Shown here in pieces: positions 30,779 to 60,822 of a DNA stretch of 64,000 bases. The stretch spans positions 1,184,001-1,248,000 of the forward strand of contig CP147779.1 of assembly GCA_037308085.1 (NCBI GenBank). Direction: 5' to 3'. The number at the start of each line of letters is the position of its first letter. Position 1 is the stretch's first letter. Both the position numbers and the translations under genes were made by a program. The notes beneath the pieces are model-generated. The model had not been told where the DNA came from. It searched no databases and worked only from the letters and a program-made list of their open reading frames with translations. Source of the stretch: Promethearchaeati archaeon SRVP18_Atabeyarchaeia-1. GTDB lineage: Archaea > Asgardarchaeota > Atabeyarchaeia > Atabeyarchaeales > Atabeyarchaeaceae.

Positions 30779-33208
30779 ATGGCACAAGAAAAGCGACCAG
30801 AAGTTATGCAAGATCACGACCCAGTTAGAATTGGAGTATATGTTTGTCACTGTGGATTGAATATTGCTGGCTCTGTCGATTGCGCAGAAGTCGCAAAGTT
30901 TGCTGCAAGCCTTCCCAATGTTGTTCTTGCAAAAGATAACCGATATACGTGCTCAGACCAAGGGCAAGAGATAATCAAGAAGGATATCAAGGAACAGAAT
31001 CTCAATCGCGTCGTGGTAGCGTCTTGCTCGCCTCGCCTCCATGAACCGACATTCAGAAAGACATGTGAAGACGCCGGACTGAACAAGTACCTTTTCGAAA
31101 TGGCCAACATACGTGAACAATGTAGCTGGGTTCACCTCTATGACAAGAAAGGAGGAACCGAAAAGGCGAAGGATCTCGTGAGAATGGCTGTAGCCAAAGT
31201 CGCCTTGCTTCAACCGGCGCAAGAAGTCGAAGTCCCGATTACTCGTAAAGCGCTCATAATAGGAGCTGGCGTGGCCGGCATTCAGGCCGCCTTGGATCTC
31301 GCTGAAACAGGATACAAAGTCTACGTCGTGGAAAAGGAGCCAAGTATAGGGGGCATGATGGCCAGAATTGACAAGACTTTTCCGACGATGGACTGCTCGA
31401 TCTGCATACTTGCCCCGAAAATGTCCGATGCTGGACATCATCCAAACATAGAACTGATGACTAACAGCGAAGTTGCCGACGTTAAGGGATACATCGGCAA
31501 CTTCCAAGTGAAAGTGACGAAAAAACCCCGTTTCGTCAAGAAGGACTGCTCAGCATGTGGCGAATGCGCGAAGGTCTGCCCGATAGTTATGCCCAATGAA
31601 TTTGATGTGGGCCTAGCCACAAGGCATGGGATCTACACGCCATTTGCGCAAGCAGTGCCATCAACCTACATAGTAGATATGAGCCACTGTCTAAACAAAG
31701 ATGGTGTAATAGTCTGCGACAAGTGCGTCAAAGCCTGCGAAAGGCAGGCCATAGACTTTGACATGAAGACCGAGAATGTTGACCTCAACATAGGAACGAT
31801 AATTGTAGCGACTGGTGCTGATGTATTCGACCCATCGATACTGCCAAACTATGGGTACGGCAAATATCCAAATGTAATCACATCCTTGGAGTTTGAAAGA
31901 CTTATCAATGCAGGAGGGCCATCTGGTGGGCGGTTGCTGAGACCCAGTGATCTAGAGATTCCTAAGTGCGTGGCGTTCGTCCAGTGTGTCGGCTCGCGAT
32001 CCAACAAGACCGGAAAGCAGTACTGCAGTAATGTCTGTTGCATGAACACGATAAAGGACGCTCTGTTGATTAAGGAGCATTGGCCAGAAACTGAGATCAG
32101 CGTTTTCTACATTGACATTAGAGCTTACGGAAAGGGTTTCGAGGACCTCTACACACGAGCCAAGAAAGAAGGTGTCAAATTCATACGTGGACTTCCGGCA
32201 GAAATCTTAGAGGACAAAACAAGCCACAACATCCAGCTCGTTGGCGAGAACACTCTACTGAAGGAATTATACAGAATGGACGCTGACATGGCGATTCTGT
32301 CAATAGGTCTGGAATCGCGAAAAGACAGTGAAACAATTCAACGGCTACTGACAATTTCCAGAGATCAAGACGGGTTCTTCCTTGAAGCACACCCAAAACT
32401 CAGGCCAGTAGACGCTGCCACCGGAGGAATATTCTTTGCGGGCTGTGCTGAGGCTCCCAAGGACATCAAGGACAGCGTGACCCAAGCCAGTGCAGCCGCA
32501 GCTCGGGCAGGGATCTTGATGGCAAAGGGAAAAGTGACTGTCGAAGCCATTACGCCAATCTACGATGCCGAAAAATGTAAGGCATGTGGACTCTGCGTGA
32601 AAGTATGCCCATATAATGCAATCACATTAGACAAAGAAAGAAAAGTCATCAACATCGTGGAGGCTGCCTGTGGCGGATGCGGAACCTGTGCGGCTGAATG
32701 CGCATTTGGCGCTCTTACACAGAGCCACTTCACAGACGAACAGATCTCGGCACAGATTGATGCCGCAACAGAGGAAGCGCCAGAAAAGAAAGCAGTCGCA
32801 TTTTGCTGCAACTGGTGTTCATACGCAGGTGCAGACTTTGCCGGTGTGAGCAGAATGCAGTATCCACCAGACGTACGAATAATCCGGACCATGTGTTCGG
32901 GGCGCGTGGCTCAGAAATTCGTTGAAAGAGCTTTCGCTAGAGGCGCCGCAACTGTGCTAGTAGCTGGCTGCCATCTTGGAGATTGCCACTACATTAATGC
33001 CAATTACCAGACACAGAAACGCGTAGAACGTTTATGGAAAAAGATGGAGCAGAGCGGGCTAGACAGGGAAAGGCTTCAGCTGCTGTGGGCTTCTGCTGCA
33101 GAAGGCGAGAGATTCGCCAACAAGATTCGTGAATTGCACTCGATAATCGAGAAGGTGAAGCCTGAGGACATTGAGAAGTCTAGAAAGACTTTCGCAAAAA
33201 GTCTGTAG
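30779..33208 (+). CDS. hdrA: Heterodisulfide reductase subunit A fused to MvhD
   Basis: IGVYVCHCG, CSPRLHE, KTFPTMDC, QCVGSR, YCSNVCC; C-terminal FCCNWCSY...RTMCSGR...GCHLGDCHY. Confidence 0.95.
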   Translation: MAQEKRPEVMQDHDPVRIGVYVCHCGLNIAGSVDCAEVAKFAASLPNVVLAKDNRYTCSDQGQEIIKKDIKEQNLNRVVVASCSPRLHEPTFRKTCEDAGLNKYLFEMANIREQCSWVHLYDKKGGTEKAKDLVRMAVAKVALLQPAQEVEVPITRKALIIGAGVAGIQAALDLAETGYKVYVVEKEPSIGGMMARIDKTFPTMDCSICILAPKMSDAGHHPNIELMTNSEVADVKGYIGNFQVKVTKKPRFVKKDCSACGECAKVCPIVMPNEFDVGLATRHGIYTPFAQAVPSTYIVDMSHCLNKDGVIVCDKCVKACERQAIDFDMKTENVDLNIGTIIVATGADVFDPSILPNYGYGKYPNVITSLEFERLINAGGPSGGRLLRPSDLEIPKCVAFVQCVGSRSNKTGKQYCSNVCCMNTIKDALLIKEHWPETEISVFYIDIRAYGKGFEDLYTRAKKEGVKFIRGLPAEILEDKTSHNIQLVGENTLLKELYRMDADMAILSIGLESRKDSETIQRLLTISRDQDGFFLEAHPKLRPVDAATGGIFFAGCAEAPKDIKDSVTQASAAAARAGILMAKGKVTVEAITPIYDAEKCKACGLCVKVCPYNAITLDKERKVINIVEAACGGCGTCAAECAFGALTQSHFTDEQISAQIDAATEEAPEKKAVAFCCNWCSYAGADFAGVSRMQYPPDVRIIRTMCSGRVAQKFVERAFARGAATVLVAGCHLGDCHYINANYQTQKRVERLWKKMEQSGLDRERLQLLWASAAEGERFANKIRELHSIIEKVKPEDIEKSRKTFAKSL

Positions 33209-33221
33209 GTGAAAATAAGCG

Positions 33222-33500
33222 ATGCCTGAAAGAATTAGACATGCCCCCCTAGACGCCAAGAGCGTAAAATCACCGAAAGGCGAGATACACCTAATCAAGG
33301 ACCAATGTAAGGGTTGTAGCTATTGCATTGAATTCTGTCCAAAAAAGGTACTAGAAGAATCACAGGAAATAAACGCCCGTGGTGTTCATCCGCCTAGAGT
33401 AGCTGACGAAAGCAAGTGCGTCGTCTGCAATTTCTGCACATCTGTCTGTCCGGACTTTGCGATTTACGTTCTCGAGAAACCATGCAAGGAAGGTTGCTAA
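33222..33500 (+). CDS. korD: 2-oxoacid:ferredoxin oxidoreductase delta (ferredoxin) subunit
   Basis: CKGCSYCIEFCP and CVVCNFCTSVCPDFAI; operon position. Confidence 0.88.
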   Translation: MPERIRHAPLDAKSVKSPKGEIHLIKDQCKGCSYCIEFCPKKVLEESQEINARGVHPPRVADESKCVVCNFCTSVCPDFAIYVLEKPCKEGC

Positions 33501-56334: not shown

Positions 56335-57768
56335 TCACGCAGATATTTTGACGTTTGAGAACCTGATGGATGGCGTGATTGTGACTCTGTGCCTGAGCTC
56401 ATCTTCGTAGGTTCTGACGTCGTTACCTACTTCATTTACGTTCCTCAGAAGCTGCACTATGTCTGACCCTATCATGGCTTCCTTCACGGGGTATTTTATC
56501 TCTCCGCCCTCGATTTTGAACGCTGTTTGGACTCCAATTGAAAAGGCCCCTGACACTTGATTGGAAGTGTGAGCACCTATTACGGTGTATGCGAGTACTC
56601 CGTCTTCAACTTCTGATATTAGCTTCTCAAGGTCCTTAGTTCCGGGTCTAACTACGATGTTGCTTGTCTCTATTATTGGTTCAGAACTATAGGTTCTGAG
56701 TCCCGTGACATCCTTTCTTGTTGAGTTACCTGTGCTTTTGGTGTTAGCTTGATTGGCCCAAAGTGAATCATAGAGGAAAGAATTGATGACTCCCTTCTCG
56801 ATTAGGCGTGTGTTCTTTCTTGGGTTGCCTTCATCGTCGAATGACTGCGAAGCGAATCCCTTCTCAATTACGCCGTTATCCTCAATCGAGATGAGATCAG
56901 ATAGAATCTTCTTCCCCAACTTACCCGCAAAGGGGGTTTTGTTCCGTTGAAGGTTGTCTCCCATAAACGCTGGATGTATAGTGTGTGCGAAGAGATCACC
57001 CACGGCATATGAGTGCAGCACTAGATCCATGCTTCTGGTCTCGATAGGTTTCCTCGCGAGCTGGTCCACACACAGCTTTGAGACCGTCTTACCCAGCTGC
57101 TCCACATCGACGTCACTTGAGTTCCTTGCAAGTTGCAGGTAGTCTACACCTGAGACATCCCCATCGCCCTTAGCCATAGATGAAACTCGAGCGTCGACGA
57201 GCGTCTCAGTCTCCTCAAGGTCTACACCAGCGCTATTTGCTATTGCCCTATTGTATGTAATGTACGTGATTGTGCCACTGCCCGATTCTACGCGTTTATC
57301 GTAGTTTCTCATTGCTTCGGCAAGGGTTCTTCCCTTGTCGATCAGCTCCTCTATTTGGGCGTTCCTAACCTGTTTGTCAGAGATTCCCCTGACCTTCTGG
57401 TACGTGCCCTTTGCTGGAAATGCCTTGAACCTTGGATCCTCTTCCCTTGCCCGAGCGGTTCTCAGAGCTTTCTCTATGGTTTCATTCATCGGTTTTTCAG
57501 ATAGGTTTGAAGTGCAGGAGAACCCTAGTTTCTTGCCCATTGCTACGCGAATACCCAAGCCTGACTGGACTTTGCGCTGGGCGAATGTGACTTGAAGTCT
57601 CTCAATGAAACATGCGGATATGACCCTTCGGAGTGCAAAGGCCTCAGCTTGCGTAGCTCCAGTCTTCTCAGCTCGAGCCACTGCCTTGGACGCGGTTGGA
57701 GCCAAGCCGAGGTAACTGTTAAGCTTGCTCTGCTCTCCGGGACCAGTTCTAGCTTTGATGTTCGCCAT
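56335..57768 (-). CDS. pmbA: TldE/PmbA family protein
   Basis: GLGIRV, FDDEG, STGN, GAHT.N..SG.FS, IEGGE. Confidence 0.92.
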   Translation of the reverse strand: MANIKARTGPGEQSKLNSYLGLAPTASKAVARAEKTGATQAEAFALRRVISACFIERLQVTFAQRKVQSGLGIRVAMGKKLGFSCTSNLSEKPMNETIEKALRTARAREEDPRFKAFPAKGTYQKVRGISDKQVRNAQIEELIDKGRTLAEAMRNYDKRVESGSGTITYITYNRAIANSAGVDLEETETLVDARVSSMAKGDGDVSGVDYLQLARNSSDVDVEQLGKTVSKLCVDQLARKPIETRSMDLVLHSYAVGDLFAHTIHPAFMGDNLQRNKTPFAGKLGKKILSDLISIEDNGVIEKGFASQSFDDEGNPRKNTRLIEKGVINSFLYDSLWANQANTKSTGNSTRKDVTGLRTYSSEPIIETSNIVVRPGTKDLEKLISEVEDGVLAYTVIGAHTSNQVSGAFSIGVQTAFKIEGGEIKYPVKEAMIGSDIVQLLRNVNEVGNDVRTYEDELRHRVTITPSIRFSNVKISA

Positions 57769-57774
57769 TCTGGT

Positions 57775-57849
57775 TCAACCTCCACCAACCACCACATTCT
57801 TCACTCTAACACTGGTGCTCCCATTTCCCAGGGGCAGACTACCCTATTC
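57775..57849 (-). pseudogene. Displaced tldD 3' fragment (E*GSLPLGNGSTSVRVKNVVVGGG*)
   Basis: 14 of 24 codons give the same residue as the last 24 codons of tldD (59466-59395); stop lies 6 nt before the pmbA ATG. Confidence 0.85.
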
Positions 57850-59466
57850 ACGACTCGTCATTCATTTCTCATCAATGTTTAGCCAAGACTAGACTATATG
57901 TTTATCGCGATAGTTTCAGAGTGCGTGGAAAGTTGACTTAAATGGTTCTGAGCCTGAAGTCACTGGTTTTCTGCAGTATGTGAGACTGCACATGCATCAC
58001 GAGACCCTCATGGATTCCGTCTGATCTTGGTCTACTTACGGCACCCCAATGGCAAGCGGGAAGCTTAGCGAGGAATACGGCATAGACAAGAGAACTCTTC
58101 GCCGCGGGCTAGTAAAACTGATTGGCGAGAGAGAATACAAAGGGATCATGGATCGAAATGTGAAACAGAGGAAGAAACAGGTTCCGCTAGAGTGGGCACT
58201 CAGAAGACTAAGGAACGCGGAGTTGTTAACTAAACTCAGTAACGAATATGGAGTAAGCAGGAAGACTCTGCGATCCGCCTTCCGGTTGCTGATCGGTGAA
58301 GGAGAATACAGCGCGATAATAGACAGAAAGGCTAGGAAGCAGGTTCCAATCAAAAAGGTGTTAAGGCGATTCAAGAGCGGAGAGACATTGAAGAGTCTTT
58401 GTATGGAATATCATGTCACGTGGGAAACCCTGAGGAACATTCTCACGAAGGCAATTGGTGAAGAAGAGTACCGGAAATTAGTTCCAATGCACAGGGGAGG
58501 AAGAGCGCGGAGACAACTTCCAGTTCAGGAAGTTTTGACGAGAGTCAAAGCCGGTCAGTCACTAGGAAGACTTGCCAAAGCTTACAATGTAAGCTGGCTG
58601 ACTTTGAAGCGTAGGCTGGTAGAACTAGTTGGCAAAGACGGATATAAGTCGGCTAGAAAACGAACAACGCGAATCCGAGTGAAACCTCGAAGGGCCACAG
58701 TGGGATACGGCTCTCCTCTTGCAAAGGAAAATGGGGCTGACAGCCTTATTGAACTCAAGGTCAGAATGCTCCTACAGAATAACAGGGTTTCCTTCGGATA
58801 TCGGGAAAGCCTAGTTGTCAGGGGACACTGCTATGAACCAGACTTCATGTTCGGTGATAGGACCATCGTTGAGGTCATGGGAGTCACGAATACTGAGTAT
58901 TGGACGCGGTGCCACAAGAAACTGTAAGATTACGTCGGAAGTGCCTATAGAGTCATTGCAGTGATACCAGACTACTTAATCGACATAAGAAGCAAGTATA
59001 TTCCAAAAGGAGTCAGCATGATCAGGTACAACGACTTCACGAATAACATCGAAAGATACATAAAACAATTAGTGAACAAAACTAATATCGACAACTCAGC
59101 CATTCACTGATGAACTGCCACTCACGCGTGGTGATTTCAAGCATCATCGACAGTATTGCTGCAGGGGCTGGAAAAGATCCCATATTCTTCTTCCGTTAGA
59201 TCTCGACCCAGCTTGTCAAACCCTTTCCGACGTCGGATTTTGATTGGGGGAATCATACTGATGGGAGATTAGTCGGAGTTCCAGATGGGGCCCATAATAT
59301 ACCCCCTTGCCGAAGTAGAGCCTTGGTACTACCCTGCCTGTTTCAAGGAAATCGGTTGGAGGTTTCTCGCATGTTTCCAGTCTGGCGACCACTACTGCCC
59401 GCCGACAACAACATTTCGGATTCTTGTGCTACTCCCTCCATTACCCACGGGCAAATTGCTCTGTTC
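57850..59466. mobile_element. Endonuclease cassette at the tldD 3' end, carrying a replacement C-terminus (boundaries approximate)
   Basis: Splits the tldD-pmbA operon; tldD 3' end present on both sides. Confidence 0.7.
58049..59110 (+). pseudogene. Tandem-HTH-repeat + PD-(D/E)xK (Vsr/DUF559-like) endonuclease with an in-frame TAA
   Basis: Four ~54-aa repeats (L..EYGVS..TL...L..LIGE.EY), then S.IE...YEPDF...IVEV.G...YW; TAA at 58925-58927, frame stays open 60 more codons to TGA at 59110. Confidence 0.78.
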
Positions 59467-60822
59467 ATTCTTACCACAGAATCCTATGCCAGCCACCGAG
59501 AAGTCTTTTCCGACTGCATCGATATTCTGAAGTGTCTCCAGAGTTAGTCCGCTCAATGAGACGTCGAGGAGCGGTTTCGTGACTTGACCCTTTTCGATCA
59601 AGAAGGCTTCCTGGGCTGAGAACTGGAACGATCCTATCGCGATGTTAACTTGGCCTCCTCTGGTTCCTTTCACATAAATGCCGTTTCTGATATCCTCAAT
59701 TAGTTCATCAAATGAGTAGTCTCCAGGGGCGATGTACGTGTTGGACATGCGAGGGATCGGACGGAAGTGGTATCCTTGGGCTCTGGCTCCCCCGTTTGGT
59801 GCGAGATTTAGCTTAGCCGCGGCTTCCCTGTTCAAGATGTATTCTCGAAGTACGCCTTTCTCGATTATCGTTCTTTTCTTCGCTAGTGTTCCCTCAGAAT
59901 CATATTTGAAAGACCCGAAGCCATCAGGGACGCTTGGATCATCGTAGACTGTCGCCACTTCTGAACCGACCTTCTGTCCAAGCTTCCCAGTCAGTACACT
60001 CTCCCCAGAGATTACAAAGTCAGCTTCAGCGGCATGTCCAAGCGCTTCATGGACGAAGACGCCTATGTGCTCGGGATCTGCAACCACGGTAAATCGGCCA
60101 CCTGTTGCTTGCTCAGCTTTCAACAAAGCCGAAGCTTTGTTGGCAGTCTCCTTAGCGGTCGAGTCAAGGTCCTTCTCAAGAAACTTCTCAAATCCTCCCA
60201 TAGCACCGATCCTCTTCCGGTACTGACGGATCTTGTCCCCCTCCTTAGCGACTGGAACGAAGACGAGTGATCCCCTTGAAGGCTCACCTGTGATCTTCGA
60301 GCCTTCGCTATTGAGAAAAATGGTTTTCCCATAAGAATCGCCGTAGGTGACGGAGGCGCTAGCTATACTTGGGTTCTCTCGGATCACACGTGAGAGCTTC
60401 AGCGCTAGACCAAGCTTCTCATCGATCGGGACATTGGCGAAAGGCGTCTTCGCCTTGGCAATAAGTGAGTCCTCAATCTTCCTCAATCGGGCTATCTTGA
60501 CCTTCTCCTTGAGGTGCTCACTCGTCGCCTTAGCCATCTTGAAAGCGGCTTCGACGCCCCCCATGATCTCTTCGCGCGATATATCAGATGATGCAGCAAA
60601 ACCCCAGGCGCCATTAGCGAGCACTCGAATTCCGATTCCCTCACTGTAACTTGAAGTTGCCTGGTCAATCGTTTTGTCCCCCACGACTATCGATGTCGCG
60701 CTCATCATCTCGATCCTCATATCTGTGTACTCGGATCCAAGCTTGTCGGAATAATCAAGAGCCTTCTCAGAGATATCAAGAACATCCAATACCTGTAGAA
60801 CCTCCGAAAACAAGTCACTCAA
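59392..60822 (-). CDS. tldD: TldD family metalloprotease
   Basis: GIGIRVL, HEALGH, YDSEG, PRMSNT, GGQV, CGK. Confidence 0.95.
   Translation of the reverse strand: MSDLFSEVLQVLDVLDISEKALDYSDKLGSEYTDMRIEMMSATSIVVGDKTIDQATSSYSEGIGIRVLANGAWGFAASSDISREEIMGGVEAAFKMAKATSEHLKEKVKIARLRKIEDSLIAKAKTPFANVPIDEKLGLALKLSRVIRENPSIASASVTYGDSYGKTIFLNSEGSKITGEPSRGSLVFVPVAKEGDKIRQYRKRIGAMGGFEKFLEKDLDSTAKETANKASALLKAEQATGGRFTVVADPEHIGVFVHEALGHAAEADFVISGESVLTGKLGQKVGSEVATVYDDPSVPDGFGSFKYDSEGTLAKKRTIIEKGVLREYILNREAAAKLNLAPNGGARAQGYHFRPIPRMSNTYIAPGDYSFDELIEDIRNGIYVKGTRGGQVNIAIGSFQFSAQEAFLIEKGQVTKPLLDVSLSGLTLETLQNIDAVGKDFSVAGIGFCGKNEQSNLPVGNGGSSTRIRNVVVGGQ

Follow-up and report, generated by a model that had tools for sequence, protein, structure and literature searches.

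The 64,000-nt window analysed here (G000:1184001-1248000) is the whole stretch of DNA under study and belongs to a genome assembled as a single contig of 2.81 Mb (G000), whose DNA is also present in wetland metagenomes. It contains an intact tldD gene and an intact pmbA (tldE) gene, with 1539 nt between the tldD stop codon and a second, orphan copy of the tldD 3′ end that lies next to pmbA (Table 1). The encoded TldD retains its three PmbA_TldD domains, the HExxxH motif and the C-terminal cysteine of a CGK motif, and both motifs are encoded upstream of the swapped tail. The genome carries sixteen tldD/pmbA-family genes, mostly paired, including two further pairs within the window's range.

Table 1. 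Features of the tldD-pmbA interval (window positions) and gene tails duplicated elsewhere in the genome (G000 positions).
Feature	Position	Strand	Remarks
pmbA (tldE), intact	56335..57768	-	starts 6 nt past the orphan stop
Orphan, the displaced native tldD end	57775..57852	-	decayed; internal TAG; SD-like GGAGGT at 57783-57778
Element right-end motif, immediately before the orphan	57853..57888	-	23/36 nt identical with G001, at equal offset
Nuclease pseudogene, convergent with tldD	58049..59110	+	four HTH repeats and a Vsr-like/restriction-fold domain (about 58700-59107)
Element left-end motif, directly past the tldD stop	59342..59391	-	25-40/50 nt shared by window, L110, L111, L112, L124
Distal part of present tldD tail, element-type replacement end	59392..59433	-	log-odds +8.4; lacks the native GGAGG
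Proximal part of present tldD tail, host-like	59434..59466	-	profile log-odds -10.2; changepoint +18 to +48, noisy
tldD, intact metalloprotease gene	59392..60780	-	Pfam PmbA_TldD 1-3; E. coli TldD 5NJ5, E 1e-62
EF-2 (L033)	G000:100472-103465		orphan tail; HTH nuclease of the tldD-insert family and a secreted protein
Acyl-CoA dehydrogenase (L127)	within G000:824831-828681		only a LAGLIDADG-like ORF between copies, Pfam E 4e-4
Dph6 (L128)	G000:1757920-1759444		only a LAGLIDADG-like ORF between copies, Pfam E 0.02
M28 peptidase (L130)	G000:1621930-1623272		only a LAGLIDADG-like ORF (frameshifted) between copies, Pfam E 6e-8
3-hydroxyacyl-CoA dehydrogenase (L129)	G000:1174360-1174831		tail duplication, no ORF between
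atpB (L126)	G000:596267-606734		three orphan tails, with a gene for a secreted protein behind each

A first-pass annotation of the window had pointed to two 75-nt segments, one ending tldD (59466-59392) and one directly ahead of pmbA (57849-57775), and its description of them is accurate: they align without gaps, 44 of 75 nt and 14 of 24 amino acids are identical, and 9 of the 14 identical residues in the 24-codon repeat use different codons. The local score of the repeat is 77, compared to a maximum of 44 across 2000 shuffles of the interval, and the orphan's homology begins one codon earlier than had been noted, at a Gly codon (57852). The GGAGGT inside the orphan is matched by a complementary CACCTCC at the 3′ end of the genome's 16S rRNA, and the 6 nt from the orphan stop to the pmbA ATG recur both in uninterrupted relatives and in a same-genus relative (G001), as the annotation's view of an ancestral operon junction had implied. 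Its phrase that an old tldD C-terminus is fused to the pmbA start applies to the DNA, where the orphan adjoins pmbA, but not to any protein, because a TAG interrupts the orphan, which also ends in a TGA of its own. Similarly, the proposed nuclease insert does place a nuclease ORF, the one long ORF of the interval, between the repeats on the opposite strand, but that ORF is a pseudogene interrupted by a TAA (58925-58927), past which the frame continues to 59110. Judged from its reading frame, the window's nuclease is dead, and its N-terminus is probably truncated.

The arrangement is not an assembly artefact, because contigs from other wetland runs span both insert junctions, and in X2 record 6, one of these contigs, the internal TAA is covered with no difference listed. 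Neither an empty-site joint nor an excised circle was seen in the contigs of three runs, where assembly into contigs drops rare variants. No terminal direct or inverted repeats of the insert rose above chance, and a sigma-70 promoter and terminator scan was uninformative for an archaeon.

The locus was compared to that of relatives whose tldD orthologues are 72-85% identical and fall into two classes, including a second complete genome of 2.76 Mb (G002). In five of them (L104, L106 from G002, L109, L113 and L114), a single tldD is followed by 6 nt and then pmbA, and the orphan is accordingly a displaced native end rather than a tandem-gene remnant. The opposite account, in which two tandem tldD genes were reduced by deletion and an unrelated nuclease lies between them, would have refuted the first-pass reading. 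It could draw on the many tldD/pmbA paralogues in G000, but it is contradicted by these empty alleles, by the intact G001 orphan, which lies before pmbA, begins at the very base where the window's does and matches the native end of L113 at 67/72 positions, and by tail types that follow the insert and not the host; we attach almost no credence to it.

Insert DNA follows tldD in five other relatives (L110, L111, L112, L124 and L125). The same convergent nuclease, with an unbroken catalytic domain, is present in L124 and L125, and a C-terminal remnant in L111, while no nuclease remnant was found in the inserts of L110 (2.3 kb) and L112 (0.45 kb). The cargo is variable in L110, L124 and G001, and the long versions of the element in relatives are incomplete, none having been seen whole. 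The G001 assembly lacks the tldD body; upstream of the gene, G001 and L124 share 89% identity. Filled and empty sites occur in sister pairs: the tldD-body tree joins the window with L104 (100/99) and L124 with L113 (93/96), and the L125 tldD body is 90% identical to that of L114. A single clade of insert-bearing hosts is rejected (p-AU 7e-42), with at least four changes needed. Farther away, no orphan tail was seen at the roughly 75 distant tldD loci whose flanks were long enough, the one high score being a full paralogue, and a metagenome locus scan returned distant tldD genes only.

Other mobile or repeated DNA is found around these loci. A dispersed repeat of ~100-290 nt occurs in the tldD inserts of L110 (about 1850-2140) and G001 (C69 contig end), in further G001 contigs (C107, C138, C145 and C117), where it coincides with contig breaks, and at G000:2662418-2662521. 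IS605/TnpB insertions lie upstream of tldD in L124 (L124:4059-5186) and G001 (L115:2418-3579), and near the tldD-pmbA operon in L114 (L114:14315-15583).

A leave-one-out profile of the last 72 nt of tldD separates native from element-type ends, the five native ends all scoring below -15 and the remaining five insert ends above +11; applied to the sequence before the junction, it does not separate the native from the insert-bearing hosts. The downstream copy is the one that groups with the native ends of relatives, with log-odds of -21.7 in the window, where it pairs with the end of the closest relative, L104 (89/80), and -34.8 in G001. The upstream copy is foreign by this profile in L110, L111, L112, L124 and L125. 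The window's own tldD end is intermediate overall (log-odds -1.8), its last 39 nt being element-like and its first 33 nt native-like. The first-pass reading is thus largely supported, with one qualification to its inference that the present tldD 3′ end arrived with the insert: on profile evidence, only the last ~40 nt of the window's tail are clearly foreign. GGAGG is found in 5/5 native ends and 0/6 insert-bearing ends, as would be expected if the SD is kept solely by the end that adjoins pmbA.

The switch from host to element sequence lies at about -40 in L124 and about +35 in L125, and in the window within the range listed in Table 1; these positions rest on few, mostly synonymous sites, and the kin are not independent. 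Such variable switch points, if real, would fit conversion tracts better than one recombination core. A DGR-type repeat is ruled out, as the differences between the tail copies are not adenine-specific.

The ends of the insert are conserved. L125 shows no ungapped match to the left-end motif. The identity of the right-end motif between the window and G001 was reached by 0 of 20000 random pairs, and a search of the genome contigs for its pattern found the G001 contig as the only match. Overall, the element is made up of a tldD tail that has diverged, left and right ends that are both conserved, a convergent nuclease gene of the HTH-repeat/Vsr-like kind and, optionally, cargo. It occupies one fixed site in unrelated host lineages, where the displaced native tail keeps the spacer and SD before pmbA. 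The tldD tail travels with the insert, because the insert hosts are not a clade, yet their tails form one sequence type. Tail and nuclease have spread horizontally, and in the window the nuclease gene and the orphan have decayed.

The tldD-linked nucleases, which adjoin tldD in the window, L124 and L125 and leave a remnant in L111, make up a single clade (99/97) of a small family present in 9 of 251 Asgard genomes searched. The family is undescribed and modular, with 4 to 7 or more HTH repeats, and S, E, D, E, G, Y and K are its invariant residues, as judged from 21 sequences. A structural model of the C-terminal domain (pLDDT 85.8) is closest in fold to I-Bth0305I (3R3P; Z 9.4, rmsd 3.1, 95 aligned), but Bax1, a DUF559-like protein and PspGI lie within 1 Z unit of this match, in effect a tie, and Vsr (1CW0, Z 7.7) comes next; the domain is 11-22% identical to all of them. 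The model meets the expectation of a Vsr/restriction-type fold. The EDxHD catalytic His and the Asp that follows it have no conserved counterpart there in the 21 sequences, and because this His is absent, the nuclease is not a member of the EDxHD family. With respect to PD-(D/E)xK enzymes, the PD and E are invariant or nearly so, no Lys lies two residues past the E, and an invariant Lys is found on the next helix.

Distant relatives of the nuclease lie inside the 16S rRNA genes of three Asgard genomes (G000, G023 and G040), encoded in G000 by an insert of ~950 nt that divides the gene (449619-450383, 451330-452025), and likewise in the other two. The interior of 16S rRNA genes is a typical niche of homing endonucleases. 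The G000 16S gene apparently has a second insert near its 3′ end with a LAGLIDADG-like ORF. Family members at 992 kb in G000 (992639-993784), on contig C218 of G001 and at 2657 kb in G002 have no detectable orphan tail; two other copies or remnants in G000 (33151-33426 and about 99400-99480) are likewise without one, and these, like the member at 992 kb, are truncated or have stops. P0124, the protein closest to the EF-2-linked nuclease, is not encoded beside EF-2 on its own contig.

The presence of nuclease relatives in rRNA introns, together with short group-I-like words visible by eye, raises the question of whether the insert is itself an intron, of group I or bulge-helix-bulge type, that splices tldD to the orphan end. 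The insert has no Rfam match, the ORF is antisense, the unspliced tldD is already complete, and in L124 the stops of tldD and the nuclease gene are only 56 nt apart; an intron is thus extremely hard to sustain. Group I candidates were rejected on the Rfam result, and a search for bulge-helix-bulge splice sites gave 13 weak candidates, of which the sole in-frame join deletes the catalytic Cys of CGK.

A genome-wide search of G000 for orphan tails finds the same layout of gene, convergent nuclease and orphan tail at five further genes, four of them with LAGLIDADG-like ORFs (Table 1), and the nuclease faces the host gene at all six loci, tldD included. Because the whole-genome scan missed the degenerate EF-2 orphan, the counts of tail swaps are lower bounds; moreover, three of the four LAGLIDADG calls are below the Pfam cut-off. 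The acyl-CoA dehydrogenase, Dph6 and M28 sites are empty in G002. For Dph6 and EF-2, the orphan is closer to the end found in relatives than the present end is, or closer to it than to the present end; for acyl-CoA dehydrogenase, M28 and atpB, the relatives have diverged too far for the native copy to be identified. The first atpB interval has a toxin-antitoxin-like pair, a marginal LAGLIDADG-like ORF (E 0.044) and, as read from the sequence, DpnII/Dam-like genes, and the atpB locus looks like a tandem cassette array.

Several side observations concern these loci. EF-2 in G002 also has an orphan tail (126475-129145, L120), with a different insert that encodes a 722-aa protein without a Pfam hit. 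At the acyl-CoA dehydrogenase locus, two tail swaps stand back to back between convergent genes that are direct neighbours in G002, the second being a serpin insert behind an Fe-S oxidoreductase gene with an orphan of about 410 nt. A LAGLIDADG-like ORF similar to the acyl-CoA dehydrogenase one lies immediately ahead of a tRNA and the 16S gene (G000:447001-447582). Further, a motif of ~70 nt with three hairpins is found just upstream of secreted-protein cargo genes (L124:339-410; G000:595812-595876, 598229-598295 and 1901696-1901764; G002:2653733-2653801); its 18 predicted pairs include 3 with compensatory changes and 0 broken, it has no Rfam match, and it is possibly a new leader RNA.

Tail duplications also occur without a nuclease, at the Fe-S oxidoreductase/serpin pair, in the inner EF-2 interval of G002, in the later atpB units and at 3-hydroxyacyl-CoA dehydrogenase. 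The serpin and EF-2 cases, and the three atpB orphan tails that each precede a secreted-protein gene, are what would be expected of a nuclease-independent hot spot, in which a gene tail and cargo enter by homologous or microhomology recombination and nucleases are one kind of cargo. We think this quite unlikely: nucleases of a single clade are linked to the tldD site in four hosts from different lineages, the same convergent position is taken repeatedly by two unrelated nuclease folds, and a hot spot offers no driving force for repeated invasion.

The reading that we consider probable is that the 1.6-kb insert is the decayed form of a free-standing homing-endonuclease element directed at the tldD 3′ end, its cleavage and mobility being inferred. 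Under this mechanism, the nuclease would cut the native tldD tail of an empty allele, the break would be repaired from an element-bearing chromosome, and the recoded, uncut tail supplied by the element would keep tldD whole and, by inference, immune. Repair tracts would end at variable points on the left, and after fixation the nuclease and orphan would decay, the state found in the window. The swap begins past the Cys-containing CGK motif and therefore the host keeps the metal ligands, going by E. coli TldD, and the element supplies the final strands.

Several points count against homing. Neither cleavage nor mobility has been shown; there are tail duplications without a nuclease, nuclease-family members without an orphan, and two tldD inserts (L110 and L112) without a nuclease remnant; repair across diverged DNA would be required between species that are only 75-90% identical; and the changepoints rest on few sites, the fold match is tied, and the LAGLIDADG calls are mostly below cut-off. 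In addition, the right junction is base-identical in the window and G001 and has a conserved flank, as an att arm would.

This last point leads to the main rival explanation, the remnant of an integrase-driven island of the e14/icd type, whose attP carried a replacement tldD tail, whose integrase was later deleted, and whose nuclease was a passenger near attL. The base-fixed right junction with its 36-nt conserved flank, the varying cargo, the absence of any long version seen whole, and the established occurrence of replacement sequences in attP (PMC10111431) are all compatible with such an island. However, no integrase ORF is present in the complete 1539-nt insert, the 4 tyrosine integrases of G000 (PF00589) all lie away from the tail-swap loci (serine recombinases were outside the search), the compact inserts at Dph6, M28 and acyl-CoA dehydrogenase contain a nuclease gene only, and the left switch points differ among hosts, albeit on few sites. 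An island remnant is an unlikely explanation of the locus that nevertheless cannot be set aside.

If the homing interpretation extends to the other loci, this Asgard lineage might host natural home-and-rescue gene drives, in which at least two unrelated nuclease families (a new HTH-repeat/Vsr-like one and LAGLIDADG) enter many housekeeping genes at the 3′ end by means of recoded tails, pass between species, deliver cargo (restriction-modification, toxin-antitoxin and secreted proteins), and build tandem arrays, as at atpB, without an integrase or intron. This is a tentative proposal that we would not yet call probable. If true, with six or more genes affected on one Asgard chromosome and the tldD element spreading between species, it would be an integrase-free route of gene gain, of interest because Asgard archaea are the closest relatives of eukaryotes; the 3′ ends of EF-2, atpB and like marker genes could have foreign ancestry in these genomes. 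Direct tests of the claim are possible, because the nuclease family comes with a predicted target, the native tail, and with a site predicted to be immune, the element tail.

To our knowledge, the replacement of gene tails by endonuclease genes without an intron is known from fungal mitochondria; no report of it in archaea was found in the literature, most subscription papers being outside the coverage. The Atabeyarchaeia elements Yucahu and Opia (PMC11529989), probably from the same genomes as those studied here by inference, belong to a set of elements that are integrase-based or viral, and TldD, elongation factor, LAGLIDADG, introns and duplication all go unmentioned in the main text of that paper.

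Replacement-attP elements (e14/phage in icd and tRNA islands; PMC10111431) provide a prokaryotic precedent in which an element-borne 3′ end restores the host gene and the displaced native end lies at the far junction. In contrast, the tldD insert has no integrase, compact inserts of its type are nuclease-only, and its left switch point is not fixed. Vsr-like (EDxHD) homing endonucleases such as I-Bth0305I (PMC2677866; PDB 3R3P) have the best-matching C-terminal fold and share with the tldD nuclease family the helical DNA-binding repeats in front and the occurrence of both free-standing and intronic forms, but the tldD nuclease lacks the Vsr catalytic His/Asp motif. The synthetic home-and-rescue gene drive HomeR (PMC7968924) has a 3′ coding target, a recoded tail of 22-27 aa, and a nuclease and cargo behind it; as it is an engineered Cas9 system in Drosophila, the likeness is an analogy of layout only.

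The closest parallel is with the fungal mitochondrial mORF gene hybrids, described for Allomyces macrogynus atp6 and for Glomus atp6, atp9, cox2 and nad3 (PMC3630166). These hybrids and the tldD element have in common an in-frame C-terminal segment that is foreign (in the window, clearly so only in its distal part), an endonuclease ORF behind it, no intron, and a native C-terminus displaced downstream that groups with the ends of relatives. They differ in that the tldD element is in an archaeal chromosome, that its nuclease is HTH-repeat/Vsr-like rather than LAGLIDADG or GIY-YIG and lies on the opposite strand instead of in phase, that extra cargo occurs, and that mobility was demonstrated biochemically for the fungal elements and is inferred here. 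The mORF-type features found at tldD are a duplicated C-terminal coding segment with its upstream copy in frame, an endonuclease gene (a pseudogene in the window) between the tail copies without an intron, and empty alleles in relatives with a patchy spread; as far as sequence comparison allows, the tldD element has every testable feature of an mORF hybrid except the full foreignness of the window's own tail.
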